A DNA stretch of 64,000 nucleotides from Naegleria gruberi. Lineage: Eukaryota. Below the pieces are notes generated by a model, which was not told where the DNA came from, searched no databases, and was given only the letters and a program-made list of their open reading frames with translations. The stretch is from the NCBI GenBank assembly GCA_000004985.1, contig GG738873.1. The stretch is one strand, 5' to 3'. A program made the position numbers and the translations under genes. Shown here piece after piece: positions 3,213-36,314 of this stretch (the stretch's first letter is position 1; the number at the start of each line of letters is the position of its first letter).

Positions 3213-5096
3213 TCATTGTTTGAATAACTTGCCATGCACTTGAACAACCAGGAAATTCGAATTCTCGAACTTGTCTTGCAACTCTGATAAGGGCGTTATT
3301 ATAAGCATCTTTCTCGAAACAGTTATCATTCTTTCTGATATCTTTAGCAAGACTGGAAACCATATCGAAGAGGGCCAATCTGGAACCACAAATGTCGCTT
3401 TGGCTCCTGACTTGATGCAGTGAACTAGAGCTTGAGATATCAGACCCAGAGGAGGCGCACAATAGCTCATCAGATTTTGTTCCCATGGGTTCAGAAATGT
3501 GTCGTTCTCTATCCATGAATTGAATTGAATTGTTGTGGTTGATTCCAATGTTGCGAATCTGTCCACGTGGTGTTCTCCAAATTCTGTCTGAACTAGATTC
3601 AATAGTTCTTGAGAGGATTTCCATTCTGTTAGACGACTCAGTCTGTCCGCCAAAATGTTTTCCTTTGAGGGAATATAAATCACTTTGGAAATCCACCATT
3701 TTCTTCTCATTAGAATTTTGTAGAGATCTCTGGCTATTTGTGAGAGTTCTTCGATGACTCCGTAACCTCTCCTTATATAAGATATTGCTGTTACATTGTC
3801 GCCTCTTATCTCGAATGCTTGACCAGGACCATAAAGGTTTAATTGATCTGCTTGTGTGAAGAAAATGAGGAGTGTTTTTAACTCTTTGACATTGATGTGC
3901 TCTGAGGAATTGAATCTTCCAATTGTAATGGTTGATTCTGCGTGAATTCCATAACCTGTTGGGCAAGCATCTGAATTCACTCGAATCGGGTTCATTGAGT
4001 TCAGTTCGAATGGAACTCCACTGTTTTCCTGAATCAGAGTTTTCAATATCTTGAGGTCTTTGGTTGCACCTCTGAATATTCTCATCGATGCGTGCCAGGA
4101 TTTGTCGTTTACTACTTTCACCATATCCTTTCGAAGACGAGCCAGAAATGGTGCAAAATAATGGTTTGATAGGGTTAGAAATTCCATCTTCCCAAGAAAC
4201 TGAGCCACTTTCTTGCAAGCTACATATCTGTTCAGTTGGTTCGCTGACAAGAAGTCTTGGATCAGTTTTATCGCAGTGGCTTGTTTGTTGAGTGGAATTT
4301 TTACCAAACCTGATATTAAATCCAATTCCAGACCCAGAAATTCTATGCATTGACAAGGTGTCAACACACTTTTCTCCTTCTGTATAATCCATCCTAATGT
4401 TTCTAGGTCTTTCAAGATTATCTCTGTGTGTTGTTGGGTAGTTTCCTTGTGGTTGCTTAGAATCAATATATCGTCGATGTAAATGAATACCAAGATGCCC
4501 TGCCTTCTCCACTTGGTCACTAGTTCCTTCATTATCTTGGTGAAGTTTCTGGGAGCTTGACTTAGACCAAATGGAAGGCATTTGAATTGGTATACAAGGC
4601 TCTTGTACTTGAATCCCAGAAGGTGTCGATGACTCTCTCTGATGGGAACATGAAAATAGCCTTTCTTCAGGTCTATCTTTGTTGCCCACATTCCTTTCTG
4701 AACAAACTTCAAACATTTTTGAATGTTGTCCATCTTGAACGAAGTATCCTTGATCCCCAAGTTTACTTTCCTGAGATCCAGAATAAAACGAAACTGATCT
4801 GAGCCCTTCTTGGGGACAATGTTTATTGGATTGAGTACCGTAGATTTGTTTCCAAGTTCGATGACATTGGAACTCAACATCTCTTGGATTTCTTGATCCA
4901 TCCAAGAGGTCTCCTTTGGAGAGAAATTCTTCCCCCGCTTGAATTCTTTCCAAAGGGTGGGATTTGAGTAGATTGGAACTCCATTCCGAATCCAATCCAC
5001 TATGAATGGGTTGAAGTTGTAACTCTCCCACTGAGTTACAAACTTGCCAAGACGACAACCCACCAAGTCAGAGGTCTTTGCTGAAGGATCCTCCAC
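3213..5096 (-). CDS. retrotransposon pol fragment (reverse transcriptase + RNase H)
   Basis: 627-aa ORF with the YIDD box and RT palm motifs; the frame continues in fragments to 2898 and then into the gap. Confidence 0.8.
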   Translation of the reverse strand: MEDPSAKTSDLVGCRLGKFVTQWESYNFNPFIVDWIRNGVPIYSNPTLWKEFKRGKNFSPKETSWMDQEIQEMLSSNVIELGNKSTVLNPINIVPKKGSDQFRFILDLRKVNLGIKDTSFKMDNIQKCLKFVQKGMWATKIDLKKGYFHVPIRESHRHLLGFKYKSLVYQFKCLPFGLSQAPRNFTKIMKELVTKWRRQGILVFIYIDDILILSNHKETTQQHTEIILKDLETLGWIIQKEKSVLTPCQCIEFLGLELDLISGLVKIPLNKQATAIKLIQDFLSANQLNRYVACKKVAQFLGKMEFLTLSNHYFAPFLARLRKDMVKVVNDKSWHASMRIFRGATKDLKILKTLIQENSGVPFELNSMNPIRVNSDACPTGYGIHAESTITIGRFNSSEHINVKELKTLLIFFTQADQLNLYGPGQAFEIRGDNVTAISYIRRGYGVIEELSQIARDLYKILMRRKWWISKVIYIPSKENILADRLSRLTEWKSSQELLNLVQTEFGEHHVDRFATLESTTTIQFNSWIENDTFLNPWEQNLMSYCAPPLGLISQALVHCIKSGAKATFVVPDWPSSIWFPVLLKISERMITVSRKMLIITPLSELQDKFENSNFLVVQVHGKLFKQ

Positions 5097-5267: not shown

Positions 5268-5317
5268 NNNNNNNNNNNNNNNNNNNNNNNNNNNNNNNNN
5301 NNNNNNNNNNNNNNNNN
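5268..5317. other. 50-N scaffold gap
   Basis: Exactly 50 n characters. Confidence 0.99.
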
Positions 5318-6847: not shown

Positions 6848-8187
6848 TTAAAATCTCTAATCCAACTCAAGTCACGGAACACTTTGACAAGATGTTCAAT
6901 ACTGCACTCGGAGACTCTAATTTGGATGAGAAATTAATCACAGGACACCCCAAACTTGCAGAATTTAGGGTTCCACCTGCTAACCCAAGTTTGCTTGCGA
7001 ATGTGGTTAGCCGTATGAAACACTCAATGCCTGGTAGTAATAAGGTGCCAATGATTGTTTCAAATTTATGAATGAAGATACTCTCCTTACCTTCTTTAAC
7101 AAAATATTTGTTGATGGTAACCCCTTCCCTGATTCTTGGAAAGCAGGTCTGCTACTTCCCCTACCTAAAAACTCGAATCCCAAATCACTCTCTGACTTCA
7201 GACCTATAGTTGTTCTCCCTATTCACTCAGCCCAAAGAGACTTCAAACGCCTTGCCTCAACTACTGACCAGCTCGTGGTGGTCTATCATTTCCGAATATA
7301 GAAAAACAAAGAAACCATTATTCATGTGCACCCTTGATATTAAGAATGCATATGGAAGTGTGGTCCATAGCAAGTTGAAATCTATCCTTCCCAGGATAGG
7401 TTTTAATAAGTCAGTAACCAATCTTGTTATGAAAATGGTTACGGGGCACAGAATCAAAGTGCTTGCTAATGGCTCAACATCACCAGCTTTTGAAGCAAGG
7501 TTTGGAGTCCCACAAGGGGATCCTATTAGCCCTCTTGTGTTCAATCTATACTTTAACACTGTTACTTCCGTGATTGATTCATATCAAGGAGCTTCCATTT
7601 GTGGAGAAAAAGTAGTTCTCCTTCTGTATGCAGACGATATCTTGGTTCTTTCTGAATCAGCTTCAGAATTAACCAATATACTTACTGAATTAAACTCAAT
7701 AGCCCTACAACTAGGGCTGCACTTCGCCACACACAAGTGCAAAGTATTTGGTGTCACTGCATCTGGCCTCAGATCTCGAGCAAAAGTTTACGTAAATGGT
7801 ACAAACATTAATAGTTCTAAGAATAATCCATTAGAGTATCTGGGTGCCTCCTTTATTAATAACATGTCTTGGTCTCCCTCCGATGATAAGGTTCTCTTAA
7901 AAGTTGAATCCAGATTACTAAATTTCAGACCAAAACACTTGAGACTCGGTCCAATGAGGAACGTAATATTATCTAAGGTGCTTTCTGTGCCTAGATACCT
8001 CTCAAGCGTAAATGCTATTCCACTTTCACTATTGGAAAAATTGGAAGTCAAAATTAGTGGAATTATTAAGAAAAGAATTGGATGTGACAACAGGCTCTCT
8101 AAAGCCGTTATCTATGGTGATAAATCCCAGGGTGGACTTGGGCTTTTATGTCCAGTTGATATAAGTCACGTGGAAAGGATGGCATCT
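6848..8187 (+). mobile_element. RTE-like non-LTR retrotransposon, copy 1 (5'-truncated, decayed, runs into gap)
   Basis: Near-identical to 9548–10850 of copy 2. Relative to copy 2 it has a ~79-bp deletion at the position of 9931–10009 and a 5-bp deletion, so the frame is broken (table ORFs 7068–7301 and 7210–8253). It ends at the 50-N gap. Confidence 0.8.
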
Positions 8188-8237
8188 NNNNNNNNNNNNN
8201 NNNNNNNNNNNNNNNNNNNNNNNNNNNNNNNNNNNNN
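8188..8237. other. 50-N scaffold gap between the two LINE copies
   Basis: Exactly 50 n characters. Confidence 0.99.
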
Positions 8238-8349
8238 AAAAAGAAAAAACTAGGCAGTCCTTTTAAGTCTGCTATTGTTCTTCGAAACGTGAATCTGAGA
8301 GTTTCCACTACTAAGGCAGCCGATTCCCCATGTATGGCTGTAGATAAAA

Positions 8350-10461
8350 GTGAACTCTCAGAGGAGGACAATTAAACATCACCTTAGAATGGCCAGTTGC
8401 AACCTCTCGTCCTTTTCAATCGACAAACAGGCCATTCTTCTTCACCACATCAAGAACGAGAGGCTTGATGTTATTAACATCCAAGAATCGCACTGGGACT
8501 CCAGCGTGTTCAAGGATAATGTTAGTAAGGCTGCTAAGTTCTTTTCCCCTTGCAAGATTTATGGAACTCCATGTAGTCCAAATGATAAGGCAGCCGGAAT
8601 CCTCACTATTATCAAAGGTACTCTGCATAGAAAGGTAATTTCTTTTGAAGTGCTAGTTTCAGGCAGAGTTTCATGTTTAAAATTAGAAACTGATTATGGT
8701 GTTGTCAACATCATTAATTGGTACGGTGTGCAAAAGTATAGTAGTGAATTCCAGAACATCTTAACTAAGCTCTCAGAGTATTTACTGGAAGCTATGTTTC
8801 ACTCGGAACATGTTATTATAATGGGTGACCTTAATATCAACACCTTGTTTGGCTCGGAGAAGAGGAAAGCGAGCGCCTTCAATGAATGGTTACAAGTATT
8901 TAACCTGAATGATCTTGTTCCATGTCCGACTCGCCCCTCTTTTAAGTCTAGTAGAGGTAGCAAGAAGCCATATTCTACCAGACCAGATCATATTGTTAGC
9001 TCCCTACTCTCCAGCCAACTGTGGGATGTTGAAATGTTTCTTCAACACAAAATGGTCTGTGCTGAGTTTCAATTATTCGATTTGGAGAGCACTGCTAAAT
9101 TTGAGGAGGTTTTCAATATGTCTAAATTCAATAACAAAGCGTTTACTGAGAATCTAGACTGCATCAATTCAAAGATTGCTTCCTTTTCAGGAAAAGATCT
9201 TCAATCCTTCTTAACTGAGCTGTGCTCTCAGTATCATTCGCCGATTAGGAAATCTCCTTTGATTACTGATATTAAAGAATATAGAGATTTAGAGCGTATT
9301 CGGAGGGCTCTCCAAAAGGCTAAATGGTCTAACCGACCGAATAAGATAGCCAAGGAATTTATGGCTACTGTTGGTGTAGATAATGCAATTGTAGCCTATA
9401 AAGATGTGGTGAAGAAACAACAGAACGTTATCCTCAGTGCTCTTAAAGCTAGAAAAGAGGCTTTCAAAAAGGCAGTTAATAACCTTAAAAGTAGTGTTCC
9501 TTATAGATACGCGTTTAAATCGGAGCGTAACTCTAGCTCTGTGTTTAAAATCTCTGATCCAACTCAGGTCACGGAACACTTTGAAAAGATGTTCAATACT
9601 GCACTCGGAGACTCTAATTTGGATGAGAAATTAATCACAGGACACCCCAAACTTGCAGAATTTAGGGTCCCACCTGCTAACCCAGGTTTGCTTGCGAATG
9701 TGGTTAGCCGGATGAAACACTCAATGCCTGGTAGTGATAAGGTGCCAATGATTGTTTTCAAATCTATGAATGAAGATGCTCTCCTTACAGTGTGTTCAAT
9801 CTTTAACAAAATCCTTGTTGATGGTAACCCCATCCCTGATTCTTGGAAAGCAGGTCTGCTACTTCCCTTACCTAAAAACTCGAATCCCAAATCACTCTCT
9901 GACTTCAGACCTATTGTTGTTCTCCCTATTATTTATAGAATTTTTTCTTCCTATGTTAACTACCACCTCATGAACAAGGTGGACGAGGAAAAAGTGATTC
10001 ACTCAGCCCAAAGAGGCTTCAAACGCCTTGCCTCAACTACTGACCAGCTCGTGGTGGTCAAGTCTATCATTTCCGAATATAGAAAAACAAAGAAACCATT
10101 ATTCATGTGCACCCTCGATATTAAGAATGCATATGGAAGTGTGGTCCATAGCAAGTTGAAATCTATCCTTCCCAGGATAGGTTTTAATGAGTCAGTAACC
10201 AATCTTGTTATGAAAATGGTTACGGGGCACAGAATCAAAGTGCTTGCTAATGGCTCAACATCACCAGCTTTTGAAGCAAGGTTTGGAGTCCCACAAGGGG
10301 ATCCTATTAGCCCTCTTGTGTTCAATCTATACTTTAACACTGTTACTTCAGTGATTGATTCATATCAAGGAGCTTCCATTTGCGGAGAAAAAGTAGTTCT
10401 CCTTCTATATGCAGACGATATCTTGGTTCTTTCTTCAGATCTCGAGCAAAAGTTTACCTAA
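8350..10461 (+). CDS. LINE ORF: AP endonuclease + reverse transcriptase (truncated by internal deletion)
   Basis: 703-aa ORF with the EEP and RT motifs listed above. Confidence 0.8.
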   Translation: MNSQRRTIKHHLRMASCNLSSFSIDKQAILLHHIKNERLDVINIQESHWDSSVFKDNVSKAAKFFSPCKIYGTPCSPNDKAAGILTIIKGTLHRKVISFEVLVSGRVSCLKLETDYGVVNIINWYGVQKYSSEFQNILTKLSEYLLEAMFHSEHVIIMGDLNINTLFGSEKRKASAFNEWLQVFNLNDLVPCPTRPSFKSSRGSKKPYSTRPDHIVSSLLSSQLWDVEMFLQHKMVCAEFQLFDLESTAKFEEVFNMSKFNNKAFTENLDCINSKIASFSGKDLQSFLTELCSQYHSPIRKSPLITDIKEYRDLERIRRALQKAKWSNRPNKIAKEFMATVGVDNAIVAYKDVVKKQQNVILSALKARKEAFKKAVNNLKSSVPYRYAFKSERNSSSVFKISDPTQVTEHFEKMFNTALGDSNLDEKLITGHPKLAEFRVPPANPGLLANVVSRMKHSMPGSDKVPMIVFKSMNEDALLTVCSIFNKILVDGNPIPDSWKAGLLLPLPKNSNPKSLSDFRPIVVLPIIYRIFSSYVNYHLMNKVDEEKVIHSAQRGFKRLASTTDQLVVVKSIISEYRKTKKPLFMCTLDIKNAYGSVVHSKLKSILPRIGFNESVTNLVMKMVTGHRIKVLANGSTSPAFEARFGVPQGDPISPLVFNLYFNTVTSVIDSYQGASICGEKVVLLLYADDILVLSSDLEQKFT

Positions 10462-11648
10462 ATGGTACTAACATTAATAGTTCTAAGAATAATCCGTTAG
10501 AGTATCTGGGTGCCTCCTTTATTAATAACATGTCTTGGTCTCCCTCCGATGATAAGGTTCTCTTAAAAGTTGAATCCAGATTACTAAATTTCAGACCAAA
10601 ACACTTGAGACTCGGTCCAATGAGGAACGTAATATTATCTAAGGTGCTTTCTGTACCTAGATACCTCTCAAGCGTAGATGCTATTCCACTTTCACTATTG
10701 GAAAAATTGGAAGTCAAAATTAGTGGAATTATTAAGAAAAGAATTGGATGTGACAACAGGCTCTCTAAAGCCGTTATATATGGTGATAAATCCCAGGGTG
10801 GACTTGGGCTTTTATCTCCAGTTGATATAAGTCACGTGGAAAGGATGGCATCTGTCTGTAGGTTTGTCAATTCTACCTCTCCTATCACCCAAAAAATCGC
10901 AAGAGCCATGATAAATAAGGCGCTCAAGGGTGAAACTACAGATTCACTGTGGAAAAATGCTGCCGCTACAATGAAAGATCTGAAATATTACTTCAAATCC
11001 ACAGATAATGGATGGGTCTTGTGTAACCATACCAATCACAAGCCTGTCTCCAACCTTAGAAATGCTATCATTGAAACTCAGCGATCCAAAAAAATTATCA
11101 ATAAGTTGGGCCAATTAGACAATGACTATAATTGGCATAACAGCACTCTCTCCTTCTGGAGAAACTCTCTCTTGTCTTATTATCAGCAAAGACTCCTCTA
11201 CTTTAATCTCCACCACTCAATTTTACTAGGTGATGACAGTACTTGTGACAAATGTAATGTCAAGGAAGATTGGACCCATGCATTCCAAACTTGTCCCAAA
11301 TGCAATCCTGAAAAGGATGAACTGTATGCCACATGGGACGCTATCTCCCAGAAATTTAGTATTAACAAGATTCGTTTCCCTCCTGATATCTCAGAATCCT
11401 CTCAACTTAGGATAGAATTTGATGGTCGTTGCTCCCGTAATTACTGGCTTAACTGGTCTAAGCGCAAAAAAATACCTAAGTATCTGGCCCTAGAAGTCTA
11501 CAAAGCACTAGCTATTTATTTGGAAAATTGCTACAAGAACTCAGTGTGGTACAACCGTCCCAATGCAAGCTTCACTATTAACAGGAAATACCTCTCTGCC
11601 TACCACAGGCAGGCTCAGTCTAACCAACCACTTAGCGTCAACCCATAA
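10380..11648 (+). pseudogene. frame-shifted continuation of the LINE RT (thumb/C-terminal region)
   Basis: Homologous to copy 1 7780–8187; it is in a different frame from ORF 8350–10461 because of the internal deletion. Confidence 0.7.
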
Positions 11649-12261: not shown

Positions 12262-15200
12262 TTATTTTACCATGATTGTCAATGTATCTGCAATTAAACT
12301 TGTTGACAAGTAGGTATTGTATCCAATAGTTTCTTTTGTATATCTAATGGCATATCCATATGGGAAATAAGTCCAATTATTGCCATTGCACCCATCAGAG
12401 GAGTGAATTACACTGAGCCAATCTCTTTCACTACCACAACCACCAAAACCATATTGAATTATGAAATGCCTTGGAGTTATTGAAGGACCAGTCAATTGCA
12501 TGGTAAAAGCAGTATAGCTATTAACATAAGAGCTTAATCCGTAAGAGGAAGATTGTATTTTCTGAGGTGTAAACCAATTTTTGAAATCAGTACCTGCTAC
12601 GTTGAATAGAATATAGTGTTGCATTGCTGAGTCCTTGTTAATTTCGATCTTTACAGTACCAAACGAACTCCAATAATTCAAGAGGTCACCTATTAATACT
12701 GTATCTGGAGTATACTTGTCCAATGTTCCCCTAATATTGATCTTTGAATTCCAAACATCTGCAGGTCCATATGGTTGACCAGTTGCAATCTTATTAACAA
12801 GTGTGTAACCACCTCCATCAGTGGTCATGTCACAATACACGTTGAACGGAGCTACTGATGGATCTGGTTGGATAGTATAAACACCATCACCAACATTACC
12901 ACCATAGACTCTGCTAGAGTTTGTTGGGTATCTATAATCTTGGCACGTTCTGGCATAGGTAAAATCAGCAAATTTCCTTCCTTCACCACATCCAACTATA
13001 CCAACAATTGAACAGGAAGGTCCATAACGAGAAGGCCCACAAAAACATTGTCCATCAACGCAAACTCCTGCATAGTTGCAAGTAACACCAAGATTAGGAG
13101 CAGAGAAGCAATAAAGCTTTCCAGTTGGTACGTTATTGTCTGATGATAGACAGTAACTATACACCGAGCCATCTGTACTCCAGATAGAAACATTACTAGT
13201 GGATATATACTCATTGCTCCAGTAACTGTTGCTATACATTCGGGATGGTATTGAATTAGAATAGTTCGTATTCCAATACAACGACAAAGGAATGGTATAG
13301 ATGTCATGTCTTGAGAAACTGGAGGTTTCTTGCTCACAGAATACAGCTAGTGGAGGAAATCCTAATGATCCTTGAATAAGATAAAGACCTCTACCTGTCA
13401 TACCTTGATATGTTTTTGAAGAATTTGTTGGATTACTATATTCTGCACAGTTCTTGGCAAATGTTCCATCTGCATATCTTCTTAATCCATTAATAGAAAC
13501 AACACCCACCAATTCACAGAATTTACCAAAATGGCCATATTCACATTGGCATGTATCATAATCCACACAAACTCCTTTGGAGGAGCAAACAGATTTGCTG
13601 GATGCTTGAAAATTGTTACAATATACGCAGAAAAATGGGTTTTGCTTGCACCATTCTGAGGTTCTGTTTTCCCCATCATATACAGCCATCCATGACCCAA
13701 CTGGATCTTCCTTTTCTGCAACGGCAAAATATGGACCAGCGTTGCCATCGGTTGTGTTGGATCCACCGTAAATATATATATAACCACCTTGGGAGGATAT
13801 TATTCCTGAACTTGTCATATAGTATGGAAGTAAACCAAATGTCATTTCCCACTTCAATGGATTTTCTGTAGTAGCTCTAAAAATGTTGAATGAAGATGAC
13901 TCAAATGTTGTGGAACCACCAAATAGATAAATGTAATCACCAACAACTTCAATAAATGCAGAATACAATGGCACAGGAATGACAGAACCATTTACAATCT
14001 CGAATTGTGTAATATTTGACAATGGAGCCCTCATGATAGTGTCTAATATAACTGGAGTGAAGCTTGGGACATTGGAAGGGTCCTCAATATCTGTCAGTGG
14101 TCTATAACTGAATATTCTAGAAATGCCACCAAATATATAAACATAATCACCAGATTGCATTATCATACCCGATGCAACAGGGACTGGGAGAGAAAATGGA
14201 GTCTTTTCCCATTGTTTCAAATCATATAGAGGACATTTGTAAATTGCATTTGACACGTTATTGTTAACAATTCCCCCAAACAAGTACATTTCCTCATTGT
14301 GTTTGAAAAAGTGAGAGTTATGAATTGAATCTGGGAATCCCTCATTTGATGTGATATTATACTCTATCATCGACCAAACATTTTCATTTTTAGAGATGTT
14401 TCTAGTGTACATGCTGAATCCATTATTTACAAGTGATGGCACTGTGTCATCAGCTTTTAACAAATAACCAATCTCACCCAAATCAAAGTAAGTCATCTTC
14501 CTCATATACCATGGCAAGGTCATGGTGACATGATTATTCATTCTAACAAACTTTCCACTTGGACTAAGAGAATAAATTTTAGAGATTGGCGTTCCGGTCC
14601 AATGGTATGGTTTTGTGTCATAGCAAGAACTTCCAGCAAATATTTCAATATTAGAACAATAACCCACAGCCATAACTGTCCCATCTGCTAGGAATAAATA
14701 ACTATTATCTTCATTACTAGTTATGTCAACCACTGGTTGGAATGAATAATAGACTTTGGTAGGAACAAGAACATTGGAATTAGTTAAGCCAGTACCTGTC
14801 TGACCAGCGTCACTCTTACCCCAAGAATATAGAGTTCTATCTTTGCAATAAACAAAATTATGGAAAGCTTTCGTGTGTATCATTGTGGCAAAACAAGTAG
14901 TGTTTGGTCCAAATTGAGATAAAATCTTTGGAAGTAATCTGTTAGTGGTTGAGTTATCTCCAACTTGGTAATAATTATTAAGACCCCATGAATAGACTCT
15001 TCCACTTGTAGTTAGAATCAAGTTGTGTCCATATCCGCATTGAATATCAGTAATTGTTTCATTGATATGTTTTGTTATAACTTCAATAGGTTCTCCTTGA
15101 GATACATTGTTATTAGTACCAAGTTGTCCCCATCCATTGTAACCCATTGAATACAGTCTATTGGTATTCGACAATACAAGTGCATGCTTAAAACCAGCAC

Positions 15201-16286
15201 AAACCCTAACCATAGTTTGATTCATTAAGGCTGCATACCTGTAAACAGAAAAAGGCCTGTTTTTTTCATCCCAAGTTCTATCCCCCAGTTGACCTTGATC
15301 GTTAGCACCCCAGCTCCATAGTTTTCCTGATGAATCAATTGCGTAGGCTGAAAAATATCCTAGTGCGATTTGCTCAATTTTTGCACCTCTAAATCCATTT
15401 ACAAATGTTGGGACAAACTTTGTTTTGGTTCCTCCGGTAGCCAATTGTGAACGTTCATTTAACCCAAAAGCAAAAACTCCCTTGTTTGTGAGAATAAGGT
15501 TGGAAAATTGATTTGCCTCGATTTGAAGAATATCCAATCCATCTAAAAGTTCAACAGGAGCATTATATATTAATCTAGTATCATTGGTTAGATGAATTCT
15601 TCCAAGATTACCATTTTCAAAAACTCCAGTTGAGTACAATTTACCGTTGGGCATTAAAATTAATACATGTTTTAACCCAGCACTAATTCTATTTCTAATT
15701 CTTTTAATCGGCAGTCTTGTGTCAAATCTTTCGTAAACCCCTCTTTTACAATTGACAGTAAAATGATCTTGGTTTGTTTCATTTAAATTTGTTTCTCTAA
15801 AATACAATTCTTCACCATAGTCTTCTACGGTGTAATTCTTAACAATTTCAGTTTTTTTCGAAGTCAATTCATACTTACATTCATGACATCAGAAGATTTT
15901 CTTCCCAAATCCTCGATACTGTTTAATCCCAATGAAAGAATATATGAATTTTCCAGTTCCCAACTCAATACCTTTGCAACATTTTGATTGTTTTTGGAAA
16001 CCATAGATTCGAAAATAGTCTTATTGATATTAAGTTGTTCCAGGATTGGAGCTGCTAAATTCAATGCGTCCTCCTTGTCAATAGCTATTGGCTTGGCTCT
16101 ACTGCTGACAAATTTGTCGCGCTCCTCCTGAAGATTGGTCATAACGTTGATAAAACTCTTTTGTTTATCCTTCCAACTTTTAACCAAGGACATTTCATAT
16201 TGTTGTTCCTGATTGTTGATGTCGATATATCCACTTATCTCAACCGTATCATATATTAAAAGTACTAGTGGTAAAGTTGTCATCAT
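12262..16286 (-). CDS. paralog A of the secreted RCC1-repeat/Kelch-repeat/EGF-like/fibrinogen-related (FReD) family; exons 15879–16286 and 12262–15837 (41-nt intron 15838–15878)
   Basis: Exon 1 encodes a hydrophobic N-terminus (MMTTLPLVLLIY) and a ~110-aa helical module, ending ...DVMN before GTAAGT. Exon 2 has RCC1 signatures (GKLWSWGANDQGQLGD), Kelch-type YLFGG/YIFGG blades, Cys-rich EGF-like segments and two FReD-like modules (NCAEYSNPTNSSKTYQG...; VYCDMTTDGGGYTLV). Confidence 0.75.
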
Positions 16287-16497: not shown

Positions 16498-18113
16498 TTA
16501 CAGATCTAGCTTTCTTCTTACAGAACGCTCATCTTCAACCTCGTTGACTTCTCCTGTTTCATCATCATCAAACAATCCACCACTGCCTGGAGGTAGAATT
16601 TCAGAACCAGATGGTGTAGAAATTCCAGATTCATTAAAACTTCTCTTTTGAGTAATACTTGACATGGATGATAAATTTGAAGCTGGTGAAATTAATAATT
16701 TACCATGTTGTTGTGGAGTACATGTTGCTTCTCCCATCATTTCATCATTCGAAACCATGCTAATATTATTTACACTACCAAGAGAATCTCTCCCTCTGAA
16801 AATACTATTTGGTCCCACTAAACTCATCATTGAGTAAGATGAAAGACCACTTGTATTTCCTGGACTGTCTTCAAAGTTTAAAACCTTACTGACAGAATTT
16901 GTAATTCTGTGATGAATTTCTTCTCCATACATTTTTGTGTGAGATTCATAATCTCTTCTCTCTTGTTCGTCATGGTTGATTGCAAGACGTTGATAAGAAT
17001 CCATGGCATGTTTTCTCTTTGGAACAGGAAGGTTAAGTTTAGGAGTTGGTTGAACACCACGAGTAAAGTAAGGATGATTAAGAGCTTGTTCAGCTGTGAT
17101 TCTCTTCTTTGGATCAAAAACAAGCATCTTACTAATTAAATCAATAGCATCACGACTGGCAGCAGTAAAGAGAGCATGGAATTCAGTCTTTTGGAATGGC
17201 TCAAATTCAATATAATTAGGTAATAATTTCATTCCAGGCCATTCTTCCTCAGAAGGTGTTCCCAAACAAGCAAATATCTTTCCCAATTGATCAATATCAG
17301 AATCTCCAGGGAAAAGAGGAGCACGTAACATGAGCTCAGCAAATATGCACCCAATACTCCACATGTCCACACTTGGACCATATAACTCAGCTCCAAATAA
17401 TAATTCTGGAGCTCTGTACCATCTGGTAACACATTGTGGAGAGTATCTCTTATCTGGTGAGCCATATATTTTAGCAAGACCCTTTTTTTAGATAATTTGA
17501 ATGTCTAATGTGCATTGTATTCCTCAATACTTACAAAGTCAGCAAGCTTTAGCTCTACTTCATTGGTTTCTTCGTTTTTCCACAAGAATAGATTGGAAGG
17601 TTTCAAGTCACGGTGGAGTACCCAATTTTTGTGACAATAGTCTACTGCTTCCAAAATCATTTTCATATATTGTTTAATGTCAGTTTCATGTAAAACTATA
17701 GTCTTTTCCTTTATAACTTGTTCCAGATCGCCAAAGCCACAATATTCAAAAACTAAATTAATATTCTTCTTATTCACAAATACATCCAATAAATTTAAAA
17801 TATTTTGATGTTTAATTTCTTGGAGTGATTTAACTTCACGGATAGCAGAAAATGAAACACCTTCTTCAATACCTCGGGCAGAATCAGATGAAAGTGATCC
17901 GAGCTTTATCTTTTTGATGGCTACTGTTTGATTTGTTTCAAGATCTTTTAAAATCGTTATTAAATTATAAATATACAATAATAATTTGTAGTTGTTGTTA
18001 TAGTTACACATACCTTTACACTTGTAAACAATACCGAAAGTACCCTCTCCGATAAAACAAATTCTTTCATACCTTCGTGCTCTTTGATTAGCGGCAAGTA
18101 AATAGTCAAGCAT
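16498..18113 (-). CDS. CDK7: CDK7/MO15-like cyclin-dependent kinase; exons 18014–18113, 17535–17944, 16498–17481
   Basis: GEGTFGIVYKCK...AIKKIKLG, HRDLKPSNLF, DFGLAK (spliced across the 53-nt intron), WYRAPELLFGAELYG and GDSDIDQLGKIF...PSEEEWPGM all match CDK7. Both introns have GT..AG boundaries. There is a ~170-aa Ser-rich C-terminal extension. Confidence 0.8.
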
Positions 18114-24662: not shown

Positions 24663-26344
24663 TTATCTCTTTTTTCCATAAGTGAAAAAGTTTTCCATAA
24701 TACTGCCAGAGGTGGCTGGATCAGAAAATGGACAACCAGAAGAACAAGGTTTGAATTCTTCTGACTTTTTGTTTTTGTAATATCTCAACCAAAAAGCTCT
24801 ATCAAAACTCTTCAAGAGTAGCCAATCATCTTGCCTTCCCTTATCAAAAAAGAGAGGATCCTTCTTTAAAATTGTATTGACAAATTCATCTAGTTCAGTA
24901 TGAGTGGTGAATTTGAAAACTTCTTGAGTAAAACCAAACTTTTCTTTCACTTCCTTTGGTAATGTATAATTCAACTCGCAACTTCCATTTGTTCTTAATT
25001 TCTCACAATAGTCATGAAGGGCTCCTTTAAACTTGAGCTCCAAACCCAATACTCTACAAAGTTCGTCAACAAAATGTTGACAGTTAGCCTTCTTTTGAGA
25101 ATACATCATGTTCATATTCCACTCACAAATTACATTACTAATCTTTTCGAGGGCTTCTCCAACCTGTGGTCCATGGAAGCATCTATCCACGTCAGCAGCT
25201 AGTACAGCAGCACCAGAGTAGCATTTTCTTGGTACAATTAATGATGAGTCATTCCACTATTTGTTGTTTCGATATGTTTCAATGAAATGATATTAAATTC
25301 ACTTACCTCTAAATACCATGGTCCTACTACTAGAGCAGAGTGAAAGAGTCCAAATTGAGGAACAACATTGAATGTATCTAAAACTGGAGAAAGGAATTTT
25401 CTGAAATTTCTTTGAGCAGCAGTTCTATGTAGTTCAACAATTACTAATTTGACCTTTAAAAATTCTTCATCCTTAATTATATAATTCTTATTAGTTTGCA
25501 GATCAGAAATTTCATTTTCCATTTTTTGTAAATCTCTCCTTTCTTCTTCATCAACCGCAGAATTGTTACCATCTTCAGCAATATTGGAAGCAATATTTGG
25601 AGCTCTACTTGAAGGGATAATTGATCCGAGATGTGATGTTGTAGAAGGTGGTGATCTACCAATTGGTTTTGAAGAAGGGGATGAGGTTGTATCATCATTG
25701 ATCAATTCTGTAATCGTCTTTTTTGTTGCAACAAAATCCTTATTCAAATAACTGTTTAAGAGATGCTTCTTGACGACTAAATTCTTTGCCTTGTCCTTTT
25801 TCTGTTTATCTGACAAGTTTTGCAAACCTTTCAATTTATCCAATTTACTCAAACACTTTTTAATGGCAACATCTTCATCAATCTGAGGAGTATGTGGGGT
25901 AGAAGGACTATTAATTGTTGTCAGTGATGATGGAGAAGTTGTATTATTTACATTGCTTTTTGTGGTGAGTGTTCGATCTAATTCTCTCATCAATTTGATT
26001 GCCACTCCAGTCGGAATATTCATTTCATCAACAAGTGTATCCTTTGTTAGGGACTCTAACATGGATCCATCAAGACCAACAAAATGTTTCTTATATTCAT
26101 CAAAACCATGAGTAGAAAGCCACTCCATCACCATATCATTGGTCCAATTAGAAATTTCCAAAATATGATTATTTGTTTGTTGTTGTATATAAAACCCTGA
26201 TGATGCTGTTGCTCTATTAATTTGTTGTTGTTGATTTTGTTGTTGGGTGAGAGGTTGTTTCTCAGAGGCGGCTTGTTGATCTTCCTCCGTAGTGACACCT
26301 CTTCCTTCACTCCAACTTGTCCACCAACTTTGGCCAAGACCCAT
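24663..26344 (-). CDS. SAM-domain + LRAT/NlpC-P60-like (H-box / NCxHFV) protein; exons 25307–26344 and 24663–25256 (50-nt intron)
   Basis: SAM-like segment (MVMEWLSTHGFDEYKKHFVGLDGSMLESL). The His box (FHSALVVGPWYLE) spans the GAG|GTAAGT...TAG intron, and the Cys box (ANCQHFVDELCR) is typical of the LRAT/H-rev107 family. Confidence 0.6.
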
Positions 26345-26401: not shown

Positions 26402-29130
26402 TTAATTACAAATGGTTGGATATTTTGAACAAATTGTTGAAAGGGCTGTAGTTGTACCACCAACCCAACCATCAGGGAAGCTTGTTCTGGTGGTTCTATA
26501 AATGTTAGGACCAACCAAACTGTTGCCTGTGGAAGCACCTGAGAACACGACATCATTAGCACTACTTGAAAAGACAGAAGAACCTGAATTGACATGGAAT
26601 GTGAGTTGGGATTTAAGGGTCCAGGAAACAAAATCAGATGTTGAATAAATCTTGTTTGATTGTGATGAAGAAAGGGATGTCAGACCTCCAATTATATAAT
26701 AATTACTGTCTGTGTCAACCTTGTAGACAAAAGCAGAATGTAGGACTGAAGGGAACTTGGAATTAAACATGATTTCCCAGTTTCTCATATCTGAATCTAC
26801 GCTTGTTCTTAATACAGTTTGAGAAATAACGAGATTTTGAATTGCATCAACATCTCTAGAAGAGTTGAAAAGATGTGTTTGCTTAATACCCCCAATGATA
26901 TACACATATTGTGTATCAGAAATCAGCATTCCTGATGCCAATGGGAACGGAAGCTTCTGGTCTAACAATTCCCATCCAAACAATGGGTCAGAAATAGGAG
27001 CTCTGTAAATTGAATTTGATATTTCATTATTAACAAACCCACCGAGCATATATATATATTCCTTGATTCTAATGATGTGTGTACTGTAGATTGATTTCCC
27101 ATAGAGCGTGTTATTGAGAACTGAGGTTGGAGATACTTGCTGCCATGAACTGTAATAGCTACCAGGATTGGTACTGTTGTAGTATCCAAATTCTAGACCA
27201 TTTCTTGATAAGAAACTCTTATCAGATTTAAGTAAATAACCTTTTCCGTTCAAATTGAAATATGGACTTTGTCTCAAATACCATGGTAAATAGGTAAAAG
27301 TGTACATGGAATCTTTTGTAAAGCTGTTAGAAACAGAACCAATTGACCTGAATACAGTTGTGGAGAAAGTACTGCCCGAGTAGTAGATGGATCCATCCAT
27401 CGTTTGAAGAGCAAAGCTTCCCGTTGAGCTACTAGCAATATCCAAAATGGAATCAACAAACTCTGTGCTAAAAGACGAGTAAAGAGTAGGTGAGGTCACA
27501 GTGGAAGCAGTTGAACCGAGTCCCAATTCACCATTTGAGTTTCTTCCATATCCGTACATTTTACCATTTGTGCAAATGAGTATTGTACTATAAAACTTTG
27601 AGTAAACTTTTTTAACACTACAAGGTGCGCTTAGGAGTTGAGGAGTGAACCTTGTGGTTGTGGATCCATCACCCAATTGACCATAGTTGTTGTATCCCCA
27701 TGTAACAACTTTTCCATCTGTAGTCAAAACAACAACGTGGTTAGATCCGCATTGAACATCAAGGATGTTAACTGCAGAGAGAGCACCAGTGAGTGGAATT
27801 GCTACAGGTTTACTTTTAAAAGAAGGATCTGTTACACCAATGCCTAATTGACCTAGAGAATTATCTCCAAATGAAGCTAACGTATTGTCACTTGTAAGGA
27901 CCACAACAAAACTATCTCCAGCGCAGACTTTGACAACTTGCTTGTTTTTTAAAGGTCCATTATTCTTTAGCACCTTAAAAGGTCTAAATTTATCTTCTTG
28001 GGTGCTGTCACCAAGTTGTCCTAAAGAGTTATCACCCCAGGCCCACAACTCGCCATCAGTTGTGATGGCGTACGAGCTTCTGCCTCCTGATGCAATTTGC
28101 TCAACTTTCTTCCCCAATAATCCTTTTACTTTAACTGGATTCAAACTATCAGCTTTGTTTCCAGTTCCTAATTGACCATTAGAATTGGAGCCAAAAGAGA
28201 ACAATCCCTCATTAGTAAGTACAAGATTTGTACGAGAGTATGTTTCTACTTGGTAGATAGTTTCAGAAGCAATAGGAATAGAGTCATTATACCTTAGTGC
28301 AGAACCGGAATAGGTTCTTCCAAGTAGCCCTACCTTTAAAGAGTCAATTCCAGTGGAATAGAGTTTTCCATTTCCTAAAATTACTATAAAATGTTGCTCA
28401 CCTCCGGAAAGGAAATTTCTAATTTGTTTTACAGTTCCTTGTGAGGTCTCTAAATTGAACAATGAATTGCCACTGTTTAGAAATCTTCCAGTTGGAACTT
28501 CTTCATTGCTGCCAATACTTTTGGTATAGGTAAAATCTTGTGATGTCAAAATGTCTTTTGAAATCATTCTCTAAGTGCAAACTAATTAATTTAGAATTTT
28601 TGTAAATTACTTACAGTGTGAAATTTTGTTATTGAGCTATTCGAAAAAGCAATGACCTTATTAATCATTTGCGTGACAATGCCAAGCTCTTCAAGCTTAG
28701 ACTTAATATCTTCCAAGGATTTTGATTTCAAAGCACTAAGGTTGTTTATGTAGTCTGCTGTAACTCCATACTGGGAAGCAAATGCAGATATACCATATGT
28801 ATCGTACAGAAAAGAAATTGAACTAGTAAATTCCAAATGAAGGTTTTTTGAGGTTTCTAAAGGAGGAATAAGTGTGGTGTTGATGTAATCAATTACATTG
28901 GAATGGGATACTCTTTGATTGAGACTCATCCTTAAGCCTTCCTCATAGTCCTCATATGTAAGGCCATCCACAAGTAACGACTCGTATGATTGGGAGGCAA
29001 AGACAGAATCTGTGAGAGTTACCTCCGATTAATTGTTTTACTAATACCTACATGAAGAATAATTCAATAATAATAAAATTACAAGTAATCCAATCCACCA
29101 AACTGTTGTTGTTGTTGGCAATCTACTCAT
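26402..29130 (-). CDS. paralog B of the secreted RCC1/Kelch family (no FReD tail); exons 29051–29130, 28615–29009, 26402–28570
   Basis: Exon 1 is a signal peptide (MSRLPTTTTVWWIGLLVILLLLNYSS) ending at donor GTAGGT. The 41-nt and 44-nt introns are in phase. Exon 3 has RCC1 (LWAWGDNSLGQLGD) and Kelch (YMLGGF, YIIGG) signatures. Confidence 0.7.
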
Positions 29131-29342: not shown

Positions 29343-32084
29343 ATGTTGTCTAAATCAAAAATGTGTGGGACTGTGATTCCCCGACTGTGTGTTATCGTGT
29401 TAATATTGTCTCTTATTCTAACAGGTATGTTGAAAAATAGTTGGAGTTTATATCTTTTCGTTAGTCTTTGCTGAAACAGACTTGACCAATGAGCAAATTG
29501 ACGAATTGAGAGCAAAAATGTTAAAAAGAAAAAACTATCTGGATGTAAAACAACTTTATGTAAAACAAAAAGCTGAAACCGACAAAACCAATATTAAAAA
29601 GAGATTGTTCGAGACCAGGAATAGCTTAGATGTTGCAGGAAACTTTTTAAATGAAACTACAATTTCTCAGAGTTCTTACGATGCATTAATGCAAACTAAA
29701 CAATCCCAATTGCAAAACTTAATGAGCATACACTTGGAAGTAGATAATTTACTCTCCATCATCCAAAATTCTGCTGACATGTTGAATGATGACGTAATAA
29801 CATTTGTTAGAGTAAGTAGATTTAAACCTTACTGAATAATTCTTTTTAGCAACATACCCAAAAAGCACGTACTATTGATAAATATGTATCCACCAATCAA
29901 ACACTTACAACATCTGATTTCAATATAACTTCAATGGAAGGAACTTTACCATCACATTATATGGCCAATTCAAATGGTATAAGAAGAATTAGGAATAGAA
30001 TATCTGCTGGCTATCAACACTTCTTATTACTTTTACCAAATGGAAAATTGTACACAACCGGATTACTTCAAAGTAACAATTTGGGTAGAAGCCAAGGATC
30101 AAACATGCTTGATATTTTATACCCTGTAGAAGGTTTAGAAGGAAAGGAAATTTTACAATTCGAATCAAATGGTTTTTTCAGTTTAGTTCTCACCACTGAT
30201 GGTGTTTACTCATTTGGCTTTAACAATAAGGGTCAATTAGGTACTGCCGATATTGTTGACAGAAATTATGCAGTTAAAGTGAAAGGATTTGCTGGAAACA
30301 ATATTACTCAAATTGCAGTAGGAATATCTTCTTCTTATGCAATTGATACCAATGGAAAAGCATGGTCCTGGGGAAGCAACGAATTTGGTCAGTTAGGAGA
30401 CAGAACAGGAGGTGACAAGGCAAGACCTTTCTCAGTTTACAATAATGGAACAATGTTTGGTAAAAAGCCAGTCAAGATCTGTGGTGGTAACAGATACGGA
30501 GTTATATTAACAAAGGATGGTATTCTCTATTCATTTGGTAACCATGATGTTGGTCAATTAGGAATTCCCTCAGTTTCAGTGTCGTACAAGTCTATTGAGC
30601 CAGTGAAAGTTGTTTTGTCAGCCTTTGTAAATTCCACAGTAATTGATGTTCAATGTGGATATGACCATGTTTTAGTATTGTTGGCAGATGGTTCAGTAGG
30701 TGCTTGGGGTAATAACAATTATTATCAAATGGGTGACCAATCAACAGCAATAAGATTTGTTCCAAAACTTATTTCTCAAATTCCTTGCAAAGTAGCATCT
30801 ATTCATACACGTTTCAATACTAACTTTGCCATTTGCAGAGACAATACAATCTACGCTTGGGGACGAAATGATAATGGTCAAACTGGTTTAGGCACAAGCT
30901 ATAGTGATGGTTCAGCCATGCCTAATGTATTGGTACCAACAAAATTAACATTTGTTCCAGAAGGCAGAGTGGTAGAAATTGCTACAACTCAATTTCACAC
31001 TGTTCTACTTACTTCTGAAGGAGTCTTCCATGGGGTTGGACGTGCTGACACCATGTTCAGATCTTCCTCTTTCAATCCAAACACTTTTTCTGTGTTAAAT
31101 GCATACTTGAAATCTGTTGTTCCTTGGCAATTAAGAAAGATACCATATTTTGAAACTGCAGACAGACTTTATATTTTGTTGGCTGACAAGGTAGCCCCAA
31201 CAAGAAGCTACAACGGATTCAACATGTATTTCAGAAATAGAAATGAGTCAGAAAAGGCCTGGAGATTAGTAGAGTTTGACAAAGAAACGAACACAGGATT
31301 CCCTGTTTCTATATACAGTACACATTACTTGAAACTTGACGAATATGTATACTTCTTTGGTGGATTTATTAATGACCACCTATCGAATGCTGTTTACAGA
31401 GCTCCATACAGTGATGTTGAAACAGGTTGGGAGCTTTTACAAAATGTCACAATTCCGGTTCCGCTCGCTGGTGGAATGACAGCAATAATCAATAATTTCT
31501 TTTACATCTTTGGCGGAATATCAAGCTTGTACAATAGTACCACAGGTGAATATAGACCAGAAGTATCTGATATCATAATGAGAGCCCCTTTGTCCAATAT
31601 TTCTGACTGGCAAATAGTTCCAAACAGAAATTTGGTGACACCCATTCATACTGGCCAAATGGCAATTGTTTGGCCTCATGTATACATTTTTGGTGGTTGC
31701 CAAACTGTGTTCACTTCATCTATGAATATTTTCAGAGCTTTACTTTCTGATCCAACCACTTGGGAAATGACATTTGGTTTGTTGCCTCATTACACAGCTA
31801 ATGCTGCTATTGTTTCTACCGGGGAGAATTTAGTGGTTGTTGGTGGAGGTGCATATCCTGAAAAACCAGGAGGTGTATTCATAGCCAAGGCAAACAAAGC
31901 TGATCCAGTAGGATCCTGGATGGCTGTTAGTGAAGTACTTCCAGATTTCCAGGCTGCAGCTGGTGCTCTCAATGGCACAGAGCTTACTCTGATTGGACAT
32001 GATTTTAGAACAACAACAAATAATCTTGATGTTGCCAGTCTATTAATTGGTCAAACTGTTGAAATTACTTTGTTTGATAATTAA
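29343..32084 (+). CDS. paralog C of the secreted RCC1/Kelch family (no FReD tail); exons 29343–29424, 29480–29811, 29850–32084
   Basis: Exon 1 is a signal peptide (MLSKSKMCGTVIPRLCVIVLILSLILT). The introns are 55 and 38 nt (GTATGT...CAG; GTAAGT...TAG). Exon 3 has RCC1 (KAWSWGSNEFGQLGD) and Kelch (YFFGGF, YIFGG) signatures. Confidence 0.7.
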
Positions 32085-32662: not shown

Positions 32663-35600
32663 ATGATGAAGACCCTCAACGCTGGTTTGCGGTCTAAATT
32701 GCAATGTGTGTGTGTAGCTTTTTGTAGGTTGTATATTTCCGCTTACTATAAATTTTTCATAGTAATAATTTGCTTCACATTGAGTGTACATACATTTGAT
32801 GCCTCAAATGATCAACAACAACATGCTGTTGAACTTGTAAAAGGATGGAAAGAAAAACAAAATAGTTACAATAGAGTTCTGGTTGGACTAAAACAACAAA
32901 AAGATGATTTTTACTCCTCAAAGATAAAGCAAAAGCTAGTGAATATGCAAGAAGCACTTGATGGTGCTTCAAGGATATTGGATGACTTGGGAGTTAATCA
33001 AACAATGTTTGATCAAATGGTCACATCAAAGAATAAGGACTTGATAAGAGCAATGAGCGTGGAAGTGGAATTGCGCAATGTCATTACCTTGGCTGATAAC
33101 TCACAAAGAATATTGGGAGAGAATAGTTTTAATATGATTAATGTAAGTTTATTTTGAGCATTGACAATTTAGTTTTGTAAAGAATTTCACCGAAGCTATC
33201 TATGGAGAGGAATTATTATTCAGACAAAACACTTTGAACTTTTCAATGAACCACCAAATGTATTTCAACTCTAGACCAGGTATTTTTCCTTCCTATGAAT
33301 ATCATTCTTCTATTGTCAGAGTGAGAAACAGAATTGTTGCAGGTGCAAATCACGTACTTGTATTAATGCCTAATGGTAAATTGTACTCGACTGGTGTCTA
33401 CAATAATGGAAATTTGGGAAGAACAAGTCAGGATTCTAGACTCCTCTACAATAACCCTGTTGAAGTTCTTGACGAATTAGAAATTCTTCAAATTGAAGCT
33501 CACAGAAATAGCAGCATGGTGTTGACTACGAATGGTCTCTATGTTTTTGGTTTAAATGATCGTTCACAATTAGCAACTGGTGGAACTAAATCTGTGTTGA
33601 AAGCAACAAAAGTTCGTGGTTTTAACTTTGACACTAAAATAGTTCAAATTGCTATGGGTAATTATGCTTCGTATGCGATAGATGAAAATGGAAAATTGTG
33701 GGCATGGGGAGCTAATGATCAAGGTCAAATTGGTGACAGAACTTGGGATGAAAAGAATAGACCATTCTCTGTTTATAGATACGGAGCTTTAGCAAATCAA
33801 ACAGTTGTTAGAGTTTGTGCTGGAAATGGTAGTGTACTTGCTTTAACATCAACAGGTAATCTGGTAGCAATTGGAGACAACACATACGGTCAATTGGGTA
33901 CTGGTGATTACGTTTCAAGTGGTGAGCCTGTAATTGTAAAGATGAAACCATTCCAAAATGAGACAATCAAAGAAATTCAATGTGGTATGTTTCATAACCT
34001 TGTCCTTACAGCCAGTGGTAAAGTTTTTGCTTTTGGTGGTAATATGTATGGACAAGTTGGAACTGGTAACACAACAAACATACCAATACCAACTTTGATT
34101 TCTGGTATTGACTGCACCGTAACCAAGATCCACTCAAAAGGTCATGTGAGTTTTGCTGTTTGTGCATCTAAACCAGGGTATTTTTATTCTTGGGGATTGA
34201 ATGATATTGGGCAAACAGGTGCTGGACTTTCTTATGGATTAAAAATTCTATCACCAAAACTTGTAAAATACTCAGCTCACCCAATTGTAGATATTACTTC
34301 CAATGTTGATAATTCCTTCCTTTTTCTTGCTGATGGATCCATTCATGCCACAGGTGGCTGTTTTAATACCCAGTTTTTCCTTGGACAAGATTGCTTTGAT
34401 GCATCTCCCAAGTACTTTTCCGAAACCGTTCTAACAAAGAAGTATGCTTTCTCTATTAACGGACTTTTCACTCAAGTACGACACCAAACCAATATGCAAT
34501 TACACTGGTATCAGAGAAAACCAGTTTATTTCGAAATGGGTGATATTGCATATTTACTTCAAACAGAGAACACTCTTCCAACAAGAAGAAATAACGGGTT
34601 CAATATGTACACCACAAACGTTACAGCAAATGACATGGTATGGAAAATGGTTGAGTATAATGAAACTACCAACACTGGTTTCCCTCACTCTATTTATAAT
34701 ACACACGTCCTTAAACATGGTGAATATGTCTATTTGTTTGGAGGTGTTGTGAATGATGATATTTCAAATAGAATTTACAGAGCACCTGTCTATGATTTGG
34801 TTCAATCATGGGAATTAATTAATGAAACACTTCCAATTCCAATAGCATCTGGAATGCTTCTGACAGTAGGAGATTATGTTTACATTTTTGGTGGTATCAT
34901 TTCTATCTATGAGTTCAATTCTACCGTCGATCTTGGTCCAACAATGAGACACAATGTAACCAATTGTATAATGCGAGCTTCAACAACAAGCATAACAAAT
35001 TGGGAGATTGTACAAGATGTTATTCCCCTTCCCCTGCATTCTGCTTTTATCGAAGTGGTTGGTAATTATGTCTACTTGTTTGGTGGCAGCTCAACAGTAC
35101 GAGGAAGTGGTATTAATATCTTTAGAGCAACATTACAATCTCCAACTGTATGGGAGATGACCTTCGGTCTTCTTCCTTATTACGTTACTAATACCGGTCC
35201 ATTTTCCTCAACAGAAGATAAGTTATATATTTTTGGTGGTACAAACTCATCCACTAGTTCAACTGGGCCTTACTTTGCCTTTGGTAAGAAGAATGATATT
35301 ATTGGATCATGGACTGCAATACCGGATACAAACATAGAGTTGAATATTATTCACAATTCTACACAATTTGATTGGTGCACCAAGTATCCATTGTTATGCT
35401 ATCAATGTTCTAACCCAGATTATTTTTTCAGTGCTGTTACTGGGCACACTGGTCCACAATATTATGAGGCTACTAATCCAAGTGTCTGCTCTTCAGCTGG
35501 TATTTGCGTTGGTAATGATGGATGTAAATGCACTCCTGGTCGATTTGGTGACCGATGTCAATTTACAGGAATAGTGGCTTACAATAATGGCAGACAATAT

Positions 35601-36314
35601 GCCGATGGAAATGTTGCTGAGTCTTGTGCTGCCTACAAAAATCCAACTAACACCTCTCGAGTATATCAAGGTATAATTGGTGATGGTTTCTATATTATTC
35701 AAATTATTGGAACAACAACACCAATTAAAGTATATTGTGACATGACTACAAATGGTGGTGGTTGGATAGCTTATTATACAGGTAGTGCTAACAAGCCAGT
35801 ACATTTGGCTAAAGGATATCAAAACCCAGGTGAAGATGTAAACTCTGGAGATTACATCGTAGATCTTAGAAGTTTCTTTTTTACCCAAGTTATGTTTTCT
35901 AAAGGTGGACAAAGCGACTGGTTTACTTGTATTGAGTGTGGAAATGGTTACACAGTTGGTTATTCAAATGATGGTGCGTTGACTTCAAATAGCCTGGGTT
36001 CTTGGCGTGCCGGTGGAGCAGTTACTGGTACCTACCAGTTGTACATTGCAGACAATGCTCCAGCATACGCAGGAACAACAAACTCAGCTGCCTTCATGAT
36101 GTACTATTCAACATCAAGTTATACATTAAACCCAACAAGTGGATACGATACCACCTCATACACAATTACTGGTTACAGAACAGATACTGGAGGCAAGATT
36201 ACGAGAACATCAGTAGGTGGCAGTTCTATATATAATGAATGCTTTGGCGTTTGCTTTAGAGCAAACTTGGGAGGTTCTTGTGGTGCAGGCAGCATGACTG
36301 TTTACCTAAGATAG
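32663..36314 (+). CDS. paralog D of the secreted RCC1/Kelch/EGF-like/FReD family; exons ~32663–33142 and 33183–36314 (40-nt intron). The 5' exon structure is uncertain and exon 1 may contain a further intron
   Basis: The exon-1 module (VELVKGWKEKQNSY...FDQMVTSKNKD) is homologous to the gene A exon-1 module and ends ...NMIN before GTAAGT, the same position as gene A. Exon 2 has RCC1 (GKLWAWGANDQGQIGD) and Kelch signatures and a C-terminal FReD-like module (SCAAYKNPTNTSRVYQG...VYCDMTTNGGGWIAYY). Confidence 0.7.

Follow-up and report, generated by a model that had tools for sequence, protein, structure and literature searches.

Fibrinogen-related heads and non-canonical bodies in the tails of an RCC1-Kelch paralogue family of Naegleria gruberi

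Lectins of the fibrinogen-related and intelectin types are regarded as innate-immunity modules of animals. The animal fibrinogen-related domains (FReDs; Pfam Fibrinogen_C, PF00147), exemplified by fibrinogen beta and gamma, ficolins, angiopoietins, tenascins and FIBCD1, occur in proteins whose partner domains are other than the RCC1 and Kelch propellers considered here. Intelectins, or X-type lectins, are likewise animal proteins, described in chordates (PMC12800186, PMC9434060). For bacteria, the NCBIfam model NF040941 ("GGGWT_bact", 46 positions, cut-off 30 bits) describes a fibrinogen-like YCDxxxxGGGW domain, of which it covers the head alone. An unnamed bacterial family of about 230 residues (for example MCK6544734.1 and MBM4253755.1) is accompanied by He_PIG, CARDB, Ig-like or EGF domains or by signal peptides, or makes up short secreted proteins. 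Partners such as He_PIG, CARDB, EGF and signal peptides are usual in proteins that are secreted or lie at the surface. At the locus analysed here the same head sits instead in a eukaryote, behind an EGF module and on an RCC1-Kelch protein.

Four paralogous genes, A to D, occupy 24 kb of the window, which denotes the whole 64,000-nucleotide stretch of Naegleria gruberi contig GG738873.1 (about 35% GC, with N-filled gaps). According to their translations and to Pfam, all four are long open reading frames (ORFs) that encode an RCC1 propeller and, after it, one of Kelch type, gene A matching WD40_RLD/RCC1 at 1e-65 together with weak Kelch families; pairwise identity among the four products is 34-47%. 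Their C-termini fall into three tail states, so the modular tail difference described in the original prediction of this locus holds, at a level that far exceeds chance. The best overall explanation, to which a probability of roughly 0.7 is assigned, is an ancient family of RCC1-Kelch paralogues with differing tails, in which A and D bear a putative ligand-binding tail and B and C bear none. The coordinates of the genes and of their tail modules are collected in Table 1.

Table 1. Features of the RCC1-Kelch paralogues and their tails, in window positions
Feature	Positions	Strand	Content or basis
Gene A ORF	12262-15867	minus	RCC1 and Kelch-type propellers and tail
Gene A long exon, including stop codon	12262..15837	minus	Single ORF; RCC1 propeller, Kelch-type propeller, tail
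Gene A intron, 41 nt, GTAAGT...TTAAG	15838..15878	minus	Read from sequence
Gene A upstream exon	15879..16286	minus	Short hydrophobic N-terminus and helical region; ATG at 16286; ORF translations
A tail, Cys-rich linker and EGF 1 (aa 740-784)	13516..13650	minus	Pfam EGF_Teneurin, EGF_2
A module 1 head (aa 794-850)	13318..13488	minus	Degenerate, FReD-A-subdomain-like; CDM..GGGW replaced by VFCEQETSS
A module 1 remainder (aa 851-929)	13081..13317	minus	Truncated body, about 80 aa
A tail EGF 2 (aa 930-952)	13012..13080	minus	Pfam EGF_Tenascin
A module 2 (aa 963-1201)	12265..12981	minus	Complete domain of about 240 aa; GGGWT-type head (12796-12981) and conserved body; predicted FReD/intelectin-like fold
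Gene B, tailless paralogue	26402..28567	minus	Ends 9 residues into the linker motif (ICSKYPTICN*)
Gene C, tailless paralogue	29934..32084	plus	Own C-terminal extension of about 50 aa
Gene D long ORF	33234..36314	plus	RCC1, Kelch, tail
D tail, Cys-rich linker and EGF (aa 715-775)	35376..35558	plus	Alignment with A
D head (aa 786-848), GGGWT-type	35589..35777	plus	NF040941, Fibrinogen_C and A-type HMM matches
D body, about 180 aa	35778..36311	plus	Conserved in N. fowleri CAG4718042.1

The long ORFs of A and D begin within their genes. Removal of the short intron of A keeps the reading frame and yields the junction "...DVMN|NYTVEDYGEELYF", which matches "...NNFTEYVYGEEMFF" in the Naegleria lovaniensis protein XP_044544662.1 (P0004), a protein with a hydrophobic segment, anchor or signal, at the position equivalent to the N-terminus of A. 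The upstream exon of A is homologous to one that precedes the long ORF of D (within 32639-33157, plus strand); therefore, the "TTG starts" of A and D suggested by their ORFs are not real starts. Short introns are common in this genome, as is apparent from a neighbouring gene for a CDK7-like protein kinase, which is spread across at least three ORFs (16498-18113, minus strand). In a collection of 15 billion proteins only the product of gene C was found, as an exact match in ENA metagenome contig L001; A was absent.

The tail of A (aa 740-1201, window 13650-12265, minus strand) consists, in order, of an EGF module, a first head, about 80 residues, a second EGF module, a second head and about 180 residues. 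Two tandem FReD-like copies had been foreseen in A, and two units, each combining an EGF module with a head resembling the fibrinogen A subdomain, are indeed present, with the qualification that the first is no full domain; all of the peptides quoted in support of the claim are found in the ORFs where they were placed. The two units share 31% identity over 144 residues (BLASTP, E=5e-19), and their similarity weakly reaches about residue 110 of module 2, where it ends. Head 1 reads VFCEQETSS instead of VYCDMTTDGGG; it scores 58 bits (E=1e-16) with a hidden Markov model (HMM) of the Naegleria D-type tail and just 9 bits with the A-type profile, a 231-position model built from full-length matches to module 2, and has no match to NF040941. 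Module 1 is best read from its sequence as a shortened remnant in which the CDM...GGGW motif is gone. Module 2 retains the Cys pair and the YCDM..GGGW core of the A subdomain, the latter as GGGY.

Gene D carries one FReD-like copy, as had been proposed, in the form of a single EGF module and a single head followed by about 180 residues. The Cys pair of the A subdomain and the YCDM..GGGW core are both present in this head, which reaches 40.9 bits with NF040941, against 54.6 bits for the head of A module 2; the pattern C...Y.I.P....VYCDMTTDGGGWT is common to the model and to both heads. The A-type profile covers positions 2-66 only in D, which places D outside the A-type domain family. The body of D could not be aligned with that of A, and a comparison of the two families by hhalign found just the 60-column head in common. 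D would thus be the same head as in A joined to another body, and a single type of head appears to be combined with at least two different bodies. Cysteines number 30 in A, 22 in D, 6 in B and 5 in C, mostly within the tails, and N-x-S/T sequons number 20 in A and 14 in D.

How far these tails are fibrinogen-related depends on the part considered. Fibrinogen_C matches score 31.8-33.2 bits in A and 23.9-25.3 bits in D, both over the gathering cut-off of 22 bits, and are confined to positions 11-53 of the 221 in the profile (12-46 in D), which correspond to the A subdomain up to GGGW. A profile search of PDB sequences recovered FReDs and intelectins at 1e-11, again for the head only, and the 179 residues that follow the head had no match among PDB sequences when searched alone. 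When the A-type family was aligned with animal FReDs by hhalign, homology ended after 62 columns, and a match to the whole domain of about 220 residues, with its A, B and P subdomains, was not found at the sequence level. The DxDxD Ca2+ site and the GGWW..C..NLNG ligand-pocket motif of the P subdomain are absent from the sequences of A and D, which do not align there; the corresponding region of A is occupied by a different C-x5-(G)W-x9-C pair. In a Foldseek search with A module 2, the top 50 structures were all FReDs or intelectins, at E values of about 1e-6 to 3.5e-5 and with TM-scores of only 0.35-0.47; intelectin-1 (PDB 4wmq) is 13-15% identical to module 2, with a TM-score of about 0.42 and a profile match limited to the head. 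Neither an HMM match to the fibrillar collagen C-propeptide (COLFI, PF01410) nor its fold was found.

The heads of A and D are, by sequence, evidently fibrinogen-related, and for A module 2 the structural model suggests that the relationship extends to the level of the fold. Since its best structural matches are all FReDs or intelectins, yet the TM-scores are low, module 2 most plausibly belongs to the FReD/intelectin fold superfamily as a genuine but remote member, the periphery of which has been remodelled. The alternative that both tails are complete lectin domains of the metazoan FReD type, with a P subdomain that binds Ca2+ and ligand, could draw on the Fibrinogen_C scores above the gathering cut-off, on PDB sequence matches that include fibrinogen beta, FIBCD1, ficolins and tenascins, and on the identity of the best structural matches; it is largely refuted by the findings beyond the head and is considered improbable. 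Of the original description of a FReD-like carbohydrate-recognition tail, the fibrinogen-related head is borne out by Pfam, NF040941 and PDB matches, while a canonical FReD is not, given the 62-column limit, the low TM-scores and the missing P-subdomain motifs. The comparison with Fibrinogen_C that it had proposed passes the threshold in a short N-terminal part of the profile, outside the Ca2+-binding and ligand-pocket motifs. Annotating the tail as a canonical Fibrinogen_C domain would be inappropriate.

The relatives of A module 2 outside Naegleria are chiefly bacterial, mainly from predators that live in soil. A word-index protein search returned one match for module 2 and one for the C-terminal half of C, and the family was found by exhaustive HMMER searching, in which module 2 retrieved 1895 representative proteins at a threshold of E<=1e-3. 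Some 35 match over the full length (about 230 residues), and many of the remainder are giant proteins in which only the head recurs, up to 15 times. Module 2 itself scores 204 bits with the A-type profile over positions 2-231 of 231 and keeps 32 of the 44 positions conserved at 80% or more, both Cys pairs included. The family has conserved residues of its own, among them the second Cys pair (C182-C198, module numbering), and its bacterial members align with module 2 end to end, sharing a W/R/G core and a terminal strand of the form hydrophobic-x-hydrophobic-R/K. Across one genome per prokaryotic species, 270 bacterial loci were confirmed by tblastn, and the full-length ones belong overwhelmingly to the Myxococcota (Polyangiales, Nannocystaceae, Myxococcaceae) and Bradymonadales; the named examples are hypothetical proteins of Myxococcota and of metagenome-assembled genomes labelled "Deltaproteobacteria". 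A departs from the consensus of the family at four of its most conserved positions (W59Y, D152Y, D185E and G187D), and module 2 may for that reason bind something different, or nothing.

Several further proteins illustrate the range of contexts in which these modules occur. One myxococcotal protein (P0006) contains three tandem full A-type domains. The GGGW head recurs in 14-15 copies, about 500 residues apart, in a metagenomic protein of 4522 residues (P0002) and in a 3103-residue protein of the amoebozoan Phalansterium solitarium (P0003); the many copies in these giant proteins suggest that the head is a reusable module placed before varied sequence. In the coral Acropora millepora, LOC122950586 (P0200) joins a GGGW head to a non-classical body ending in "...FWKVFVR". 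As this end is similar to the last strand of the domains from bacteria and Naegleria, non-canonical bodies may also exist in animals. A search of the literature on Naegleria fibrinogen-like proteins, GGGW domains and Myxococcus fibrinogen-like domains returned nothing relevant.

This distribution raises the question of whether the complete A-type domain moved from bacteria of the Myxococcota type to the Naegleria lineage, or in the reverse direction, and was grafted onto an RCC1-Kelch-EGF gene. Full-length matches outside Naegleria are nearly all bacterial or metagenomic and are concentrated in the Myxococcota, a model built for bacteria recognises the head of A well above its cut-off, and the identity of module 2 to bacterial copies (25-32%) is not far under that to N. 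lovaniensis (30-36%). On the other hand, heads also occur in Amoebozoa (Phalansterium) and in animals, so that the domain may equally well have come down vertically from an ancient superfamily, and gene A has a eukaryotic intron and a base composition typical of the window. Horizontal transfer is accordingly regarded as possible but doubtful. Still more tentative is a fuller version, in which the A-type domain would be a module for recognising prey or surface glycans, exchanged horizontally between Naegleria, as bacterivorous amoebae, and the predatory Myxococcota and Bradymonadales, and would represent a non-animal fibrinogen/intelectin branch that has kept the head and acquired a binding body of its own.

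Genes B and C contain no unit of EGF module and head, in agreement with the original prediction, which had also allowed that both might be incompletely modelled, with FReD-encoding exons further downstream. Such exons would be in keeping with the short introns of the family, such as the 41-nt intron of A, and with the position of the stop codon of B just within the linker motif, where "...ICSKYPTICN*" aligns with "WCKQNPFFC" in A and "WCTKYPLLC" in D. Nevertheless, six-frame hmmsearch with two tail profiles and tblastn with both tails found no FReD-like coding sequence outside A and D anywhere in the 64 kb, including downstream of B and C: the D-type HMM recovered the two heads of A at 58 and 77 bits and the head of D inside a full-length match of 438 bits, the rest being noise. 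The stop codon of B is followed after 58 bp by the start, at 26344, of a SAM-domain gene unrelated to B, and C is followed by the first exon of D itself. With a protein from another metagenome (P0155), C shares 46% identity over 575 residues, and 50% over the C-terminal 340 residues of C. P0155 ends at the position homologous to the end of C ("...EIQLVN*" in P0155, "...EITLFDN*" in C), conserves the last 50 residues and the stop position of C, and is followed by an unrelated gene. On these grounds, B and C are to all appearances truly tailless rather than mis-modelled, and hidden exons are very improbable. Because B ends within the linker motif, its sequence suggests that a tailed ancestor was cut short at this point to give rise to B.

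Two candidate extensions of these comparisons were examined and rejected. The ORF at 25238-26344, considered as a continuation of B, is the separate SAM-domain gene, with its own ATG. The gene downstream of P0155 was considered for synteny with D and proved unrelated to it.

The tail states were compared with those of other Naegleria-like organisms. XP_044544662.1 of N. lovaniensis, labelled as a hypothetical or "EGF-like domain-containing protein", is 45% identical to A over 1222 residues and reproduces the whole architecture of A, with a short decayed first unit (VLQFCDMTPTLPS) and a complete second unit. Its core is as close to A (53.8% identity) as to D (53.6%), so that A/D orthology is assigned by tail architecture only. 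CAG4718042.1 of N. fowleri (P0142) is a fragment with a D-type tail and a core that shares more identity with D (59.6%) than with A (47.7%), and P0155 is of the C type. The N. lovaniensis and N. fowleri proteins, the closest named relatives, are only 45-60% identical to the N. gruberi proteins, and neither is annotated as fibrinogen-like.

These counterparts bear on the age of the tails, for which the original prediction had suggested rapid diversification. A recent and rapid gain and loss of tails inside the cluster would account for the presence of four paralogues and three tail states within 24 kb, for the resemblance of B to a truncated tailed ancestor and for the decay of the first unit of A. 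The mutual identity of the four paralogues is just 34-47%, however, and the A-type end (decayed unit included), the D-type end and the C-type end each have a counterpart in another organism at 45-60% identity. Recent turnover is therefore unlikely, and the word "rapid" does not hold: the A-, D- and C-type architectures appear to predate the divergence of the Naegleria-like species compared.

Within the preferred reading of an ancient family with differing tails, each paralogue would comprise an N-terminal hydrophobic segment, a helical region, the RCC1 propeller and the Kelch-type propeller, to which the A and D subfamilies would add a Cys-rich, probably extracellular tail built from units of an EGF module and a YCDxxxxGGGW head. 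In A, the unit would have been duplicated, the proximal copy decaying to a short spacer-like relic and the distal copy persisting as a complete domain of about 240 residues, of a family common to Myxococcota and other bacteria and distantly related in fold to FReDs and intelectins; in D, the head would have been joined to another body. B and C would be real tailless forms, B by truncation just inside the linker. The propeller body could serve as a rigid scaffold for a distal domain, lectin-like or ligand-binding, that would be either displayed on the cell surface or secreted, and the paralogues would then differ in ligand specificity (A versus D) or bind nothing (B and C).

The tail is most likely an extracellular module that binds ligands or glycans. 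Its EGF modules, disulfide-rich composition and N-glycosylation sequons, the hydrophobic N-terminus of the protein and the lectin-superfamily fold all point to an extracellular location. Extracellular RCC1 and Kelch propellers would be unusual, which counts against such a location. Recognition of microbial surfaces by the A-type domain is an attractive, if tentative, idea, prompted by the concentration of the domain in predatory bacteria and in an amoeba that feeds on bacteria.

What is new here is a non-canonical domain of the FReD superfamily in a new protein context and in a non-animal eukaryote. A free-living amoeba, too, has the YCDxxxxGGGW head, carried by an unusual protein of RCC1-Kelch-EGF architecture, and one of the at least two bodies combined with this head forms a well-conserved domain that can be folded with confidence, abounds in predatory bacteria and has been uncharacterised so far. 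If this domain binds microbial glycans, the lectin superfamily would have a wider evolutionary reach, and the tailed proteins would become candidates for surface recognition in Naegleria, the genus to which the pathogen N. fowleri belongs.

Other genes of the window were noted in passing. Two retroelements adjoin N-filled assembly gaps (1-2822, 5268-5317 and 8188-8237): a DIRS-like ORF with reverse transcriptase and Dam-like methyltransferase domains (3213-5096, minus strand) and a non-LTR element with an APE endonuclease and a reverse transcriptase (7210-11648, plus strand). Questin-oxidase-like proteins belong to a family usually tied to fungal and bacterial secondary metabolism, and a gene of this kind (PF14027, E=9e-27) lies directly downstream of D on the opposite strand (36423-37886, minus strand). 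NHL repeats together with teneurin-type EGF arrays are encoded by two genes (39494-42187 and 50823-54752, both plus strand), whose EGF modules gave the sole other, weak tblastn matches to the tails of A and D; the second of these genes ends in a protein kinase domain, an architecture resembling that of a receptor kinase.
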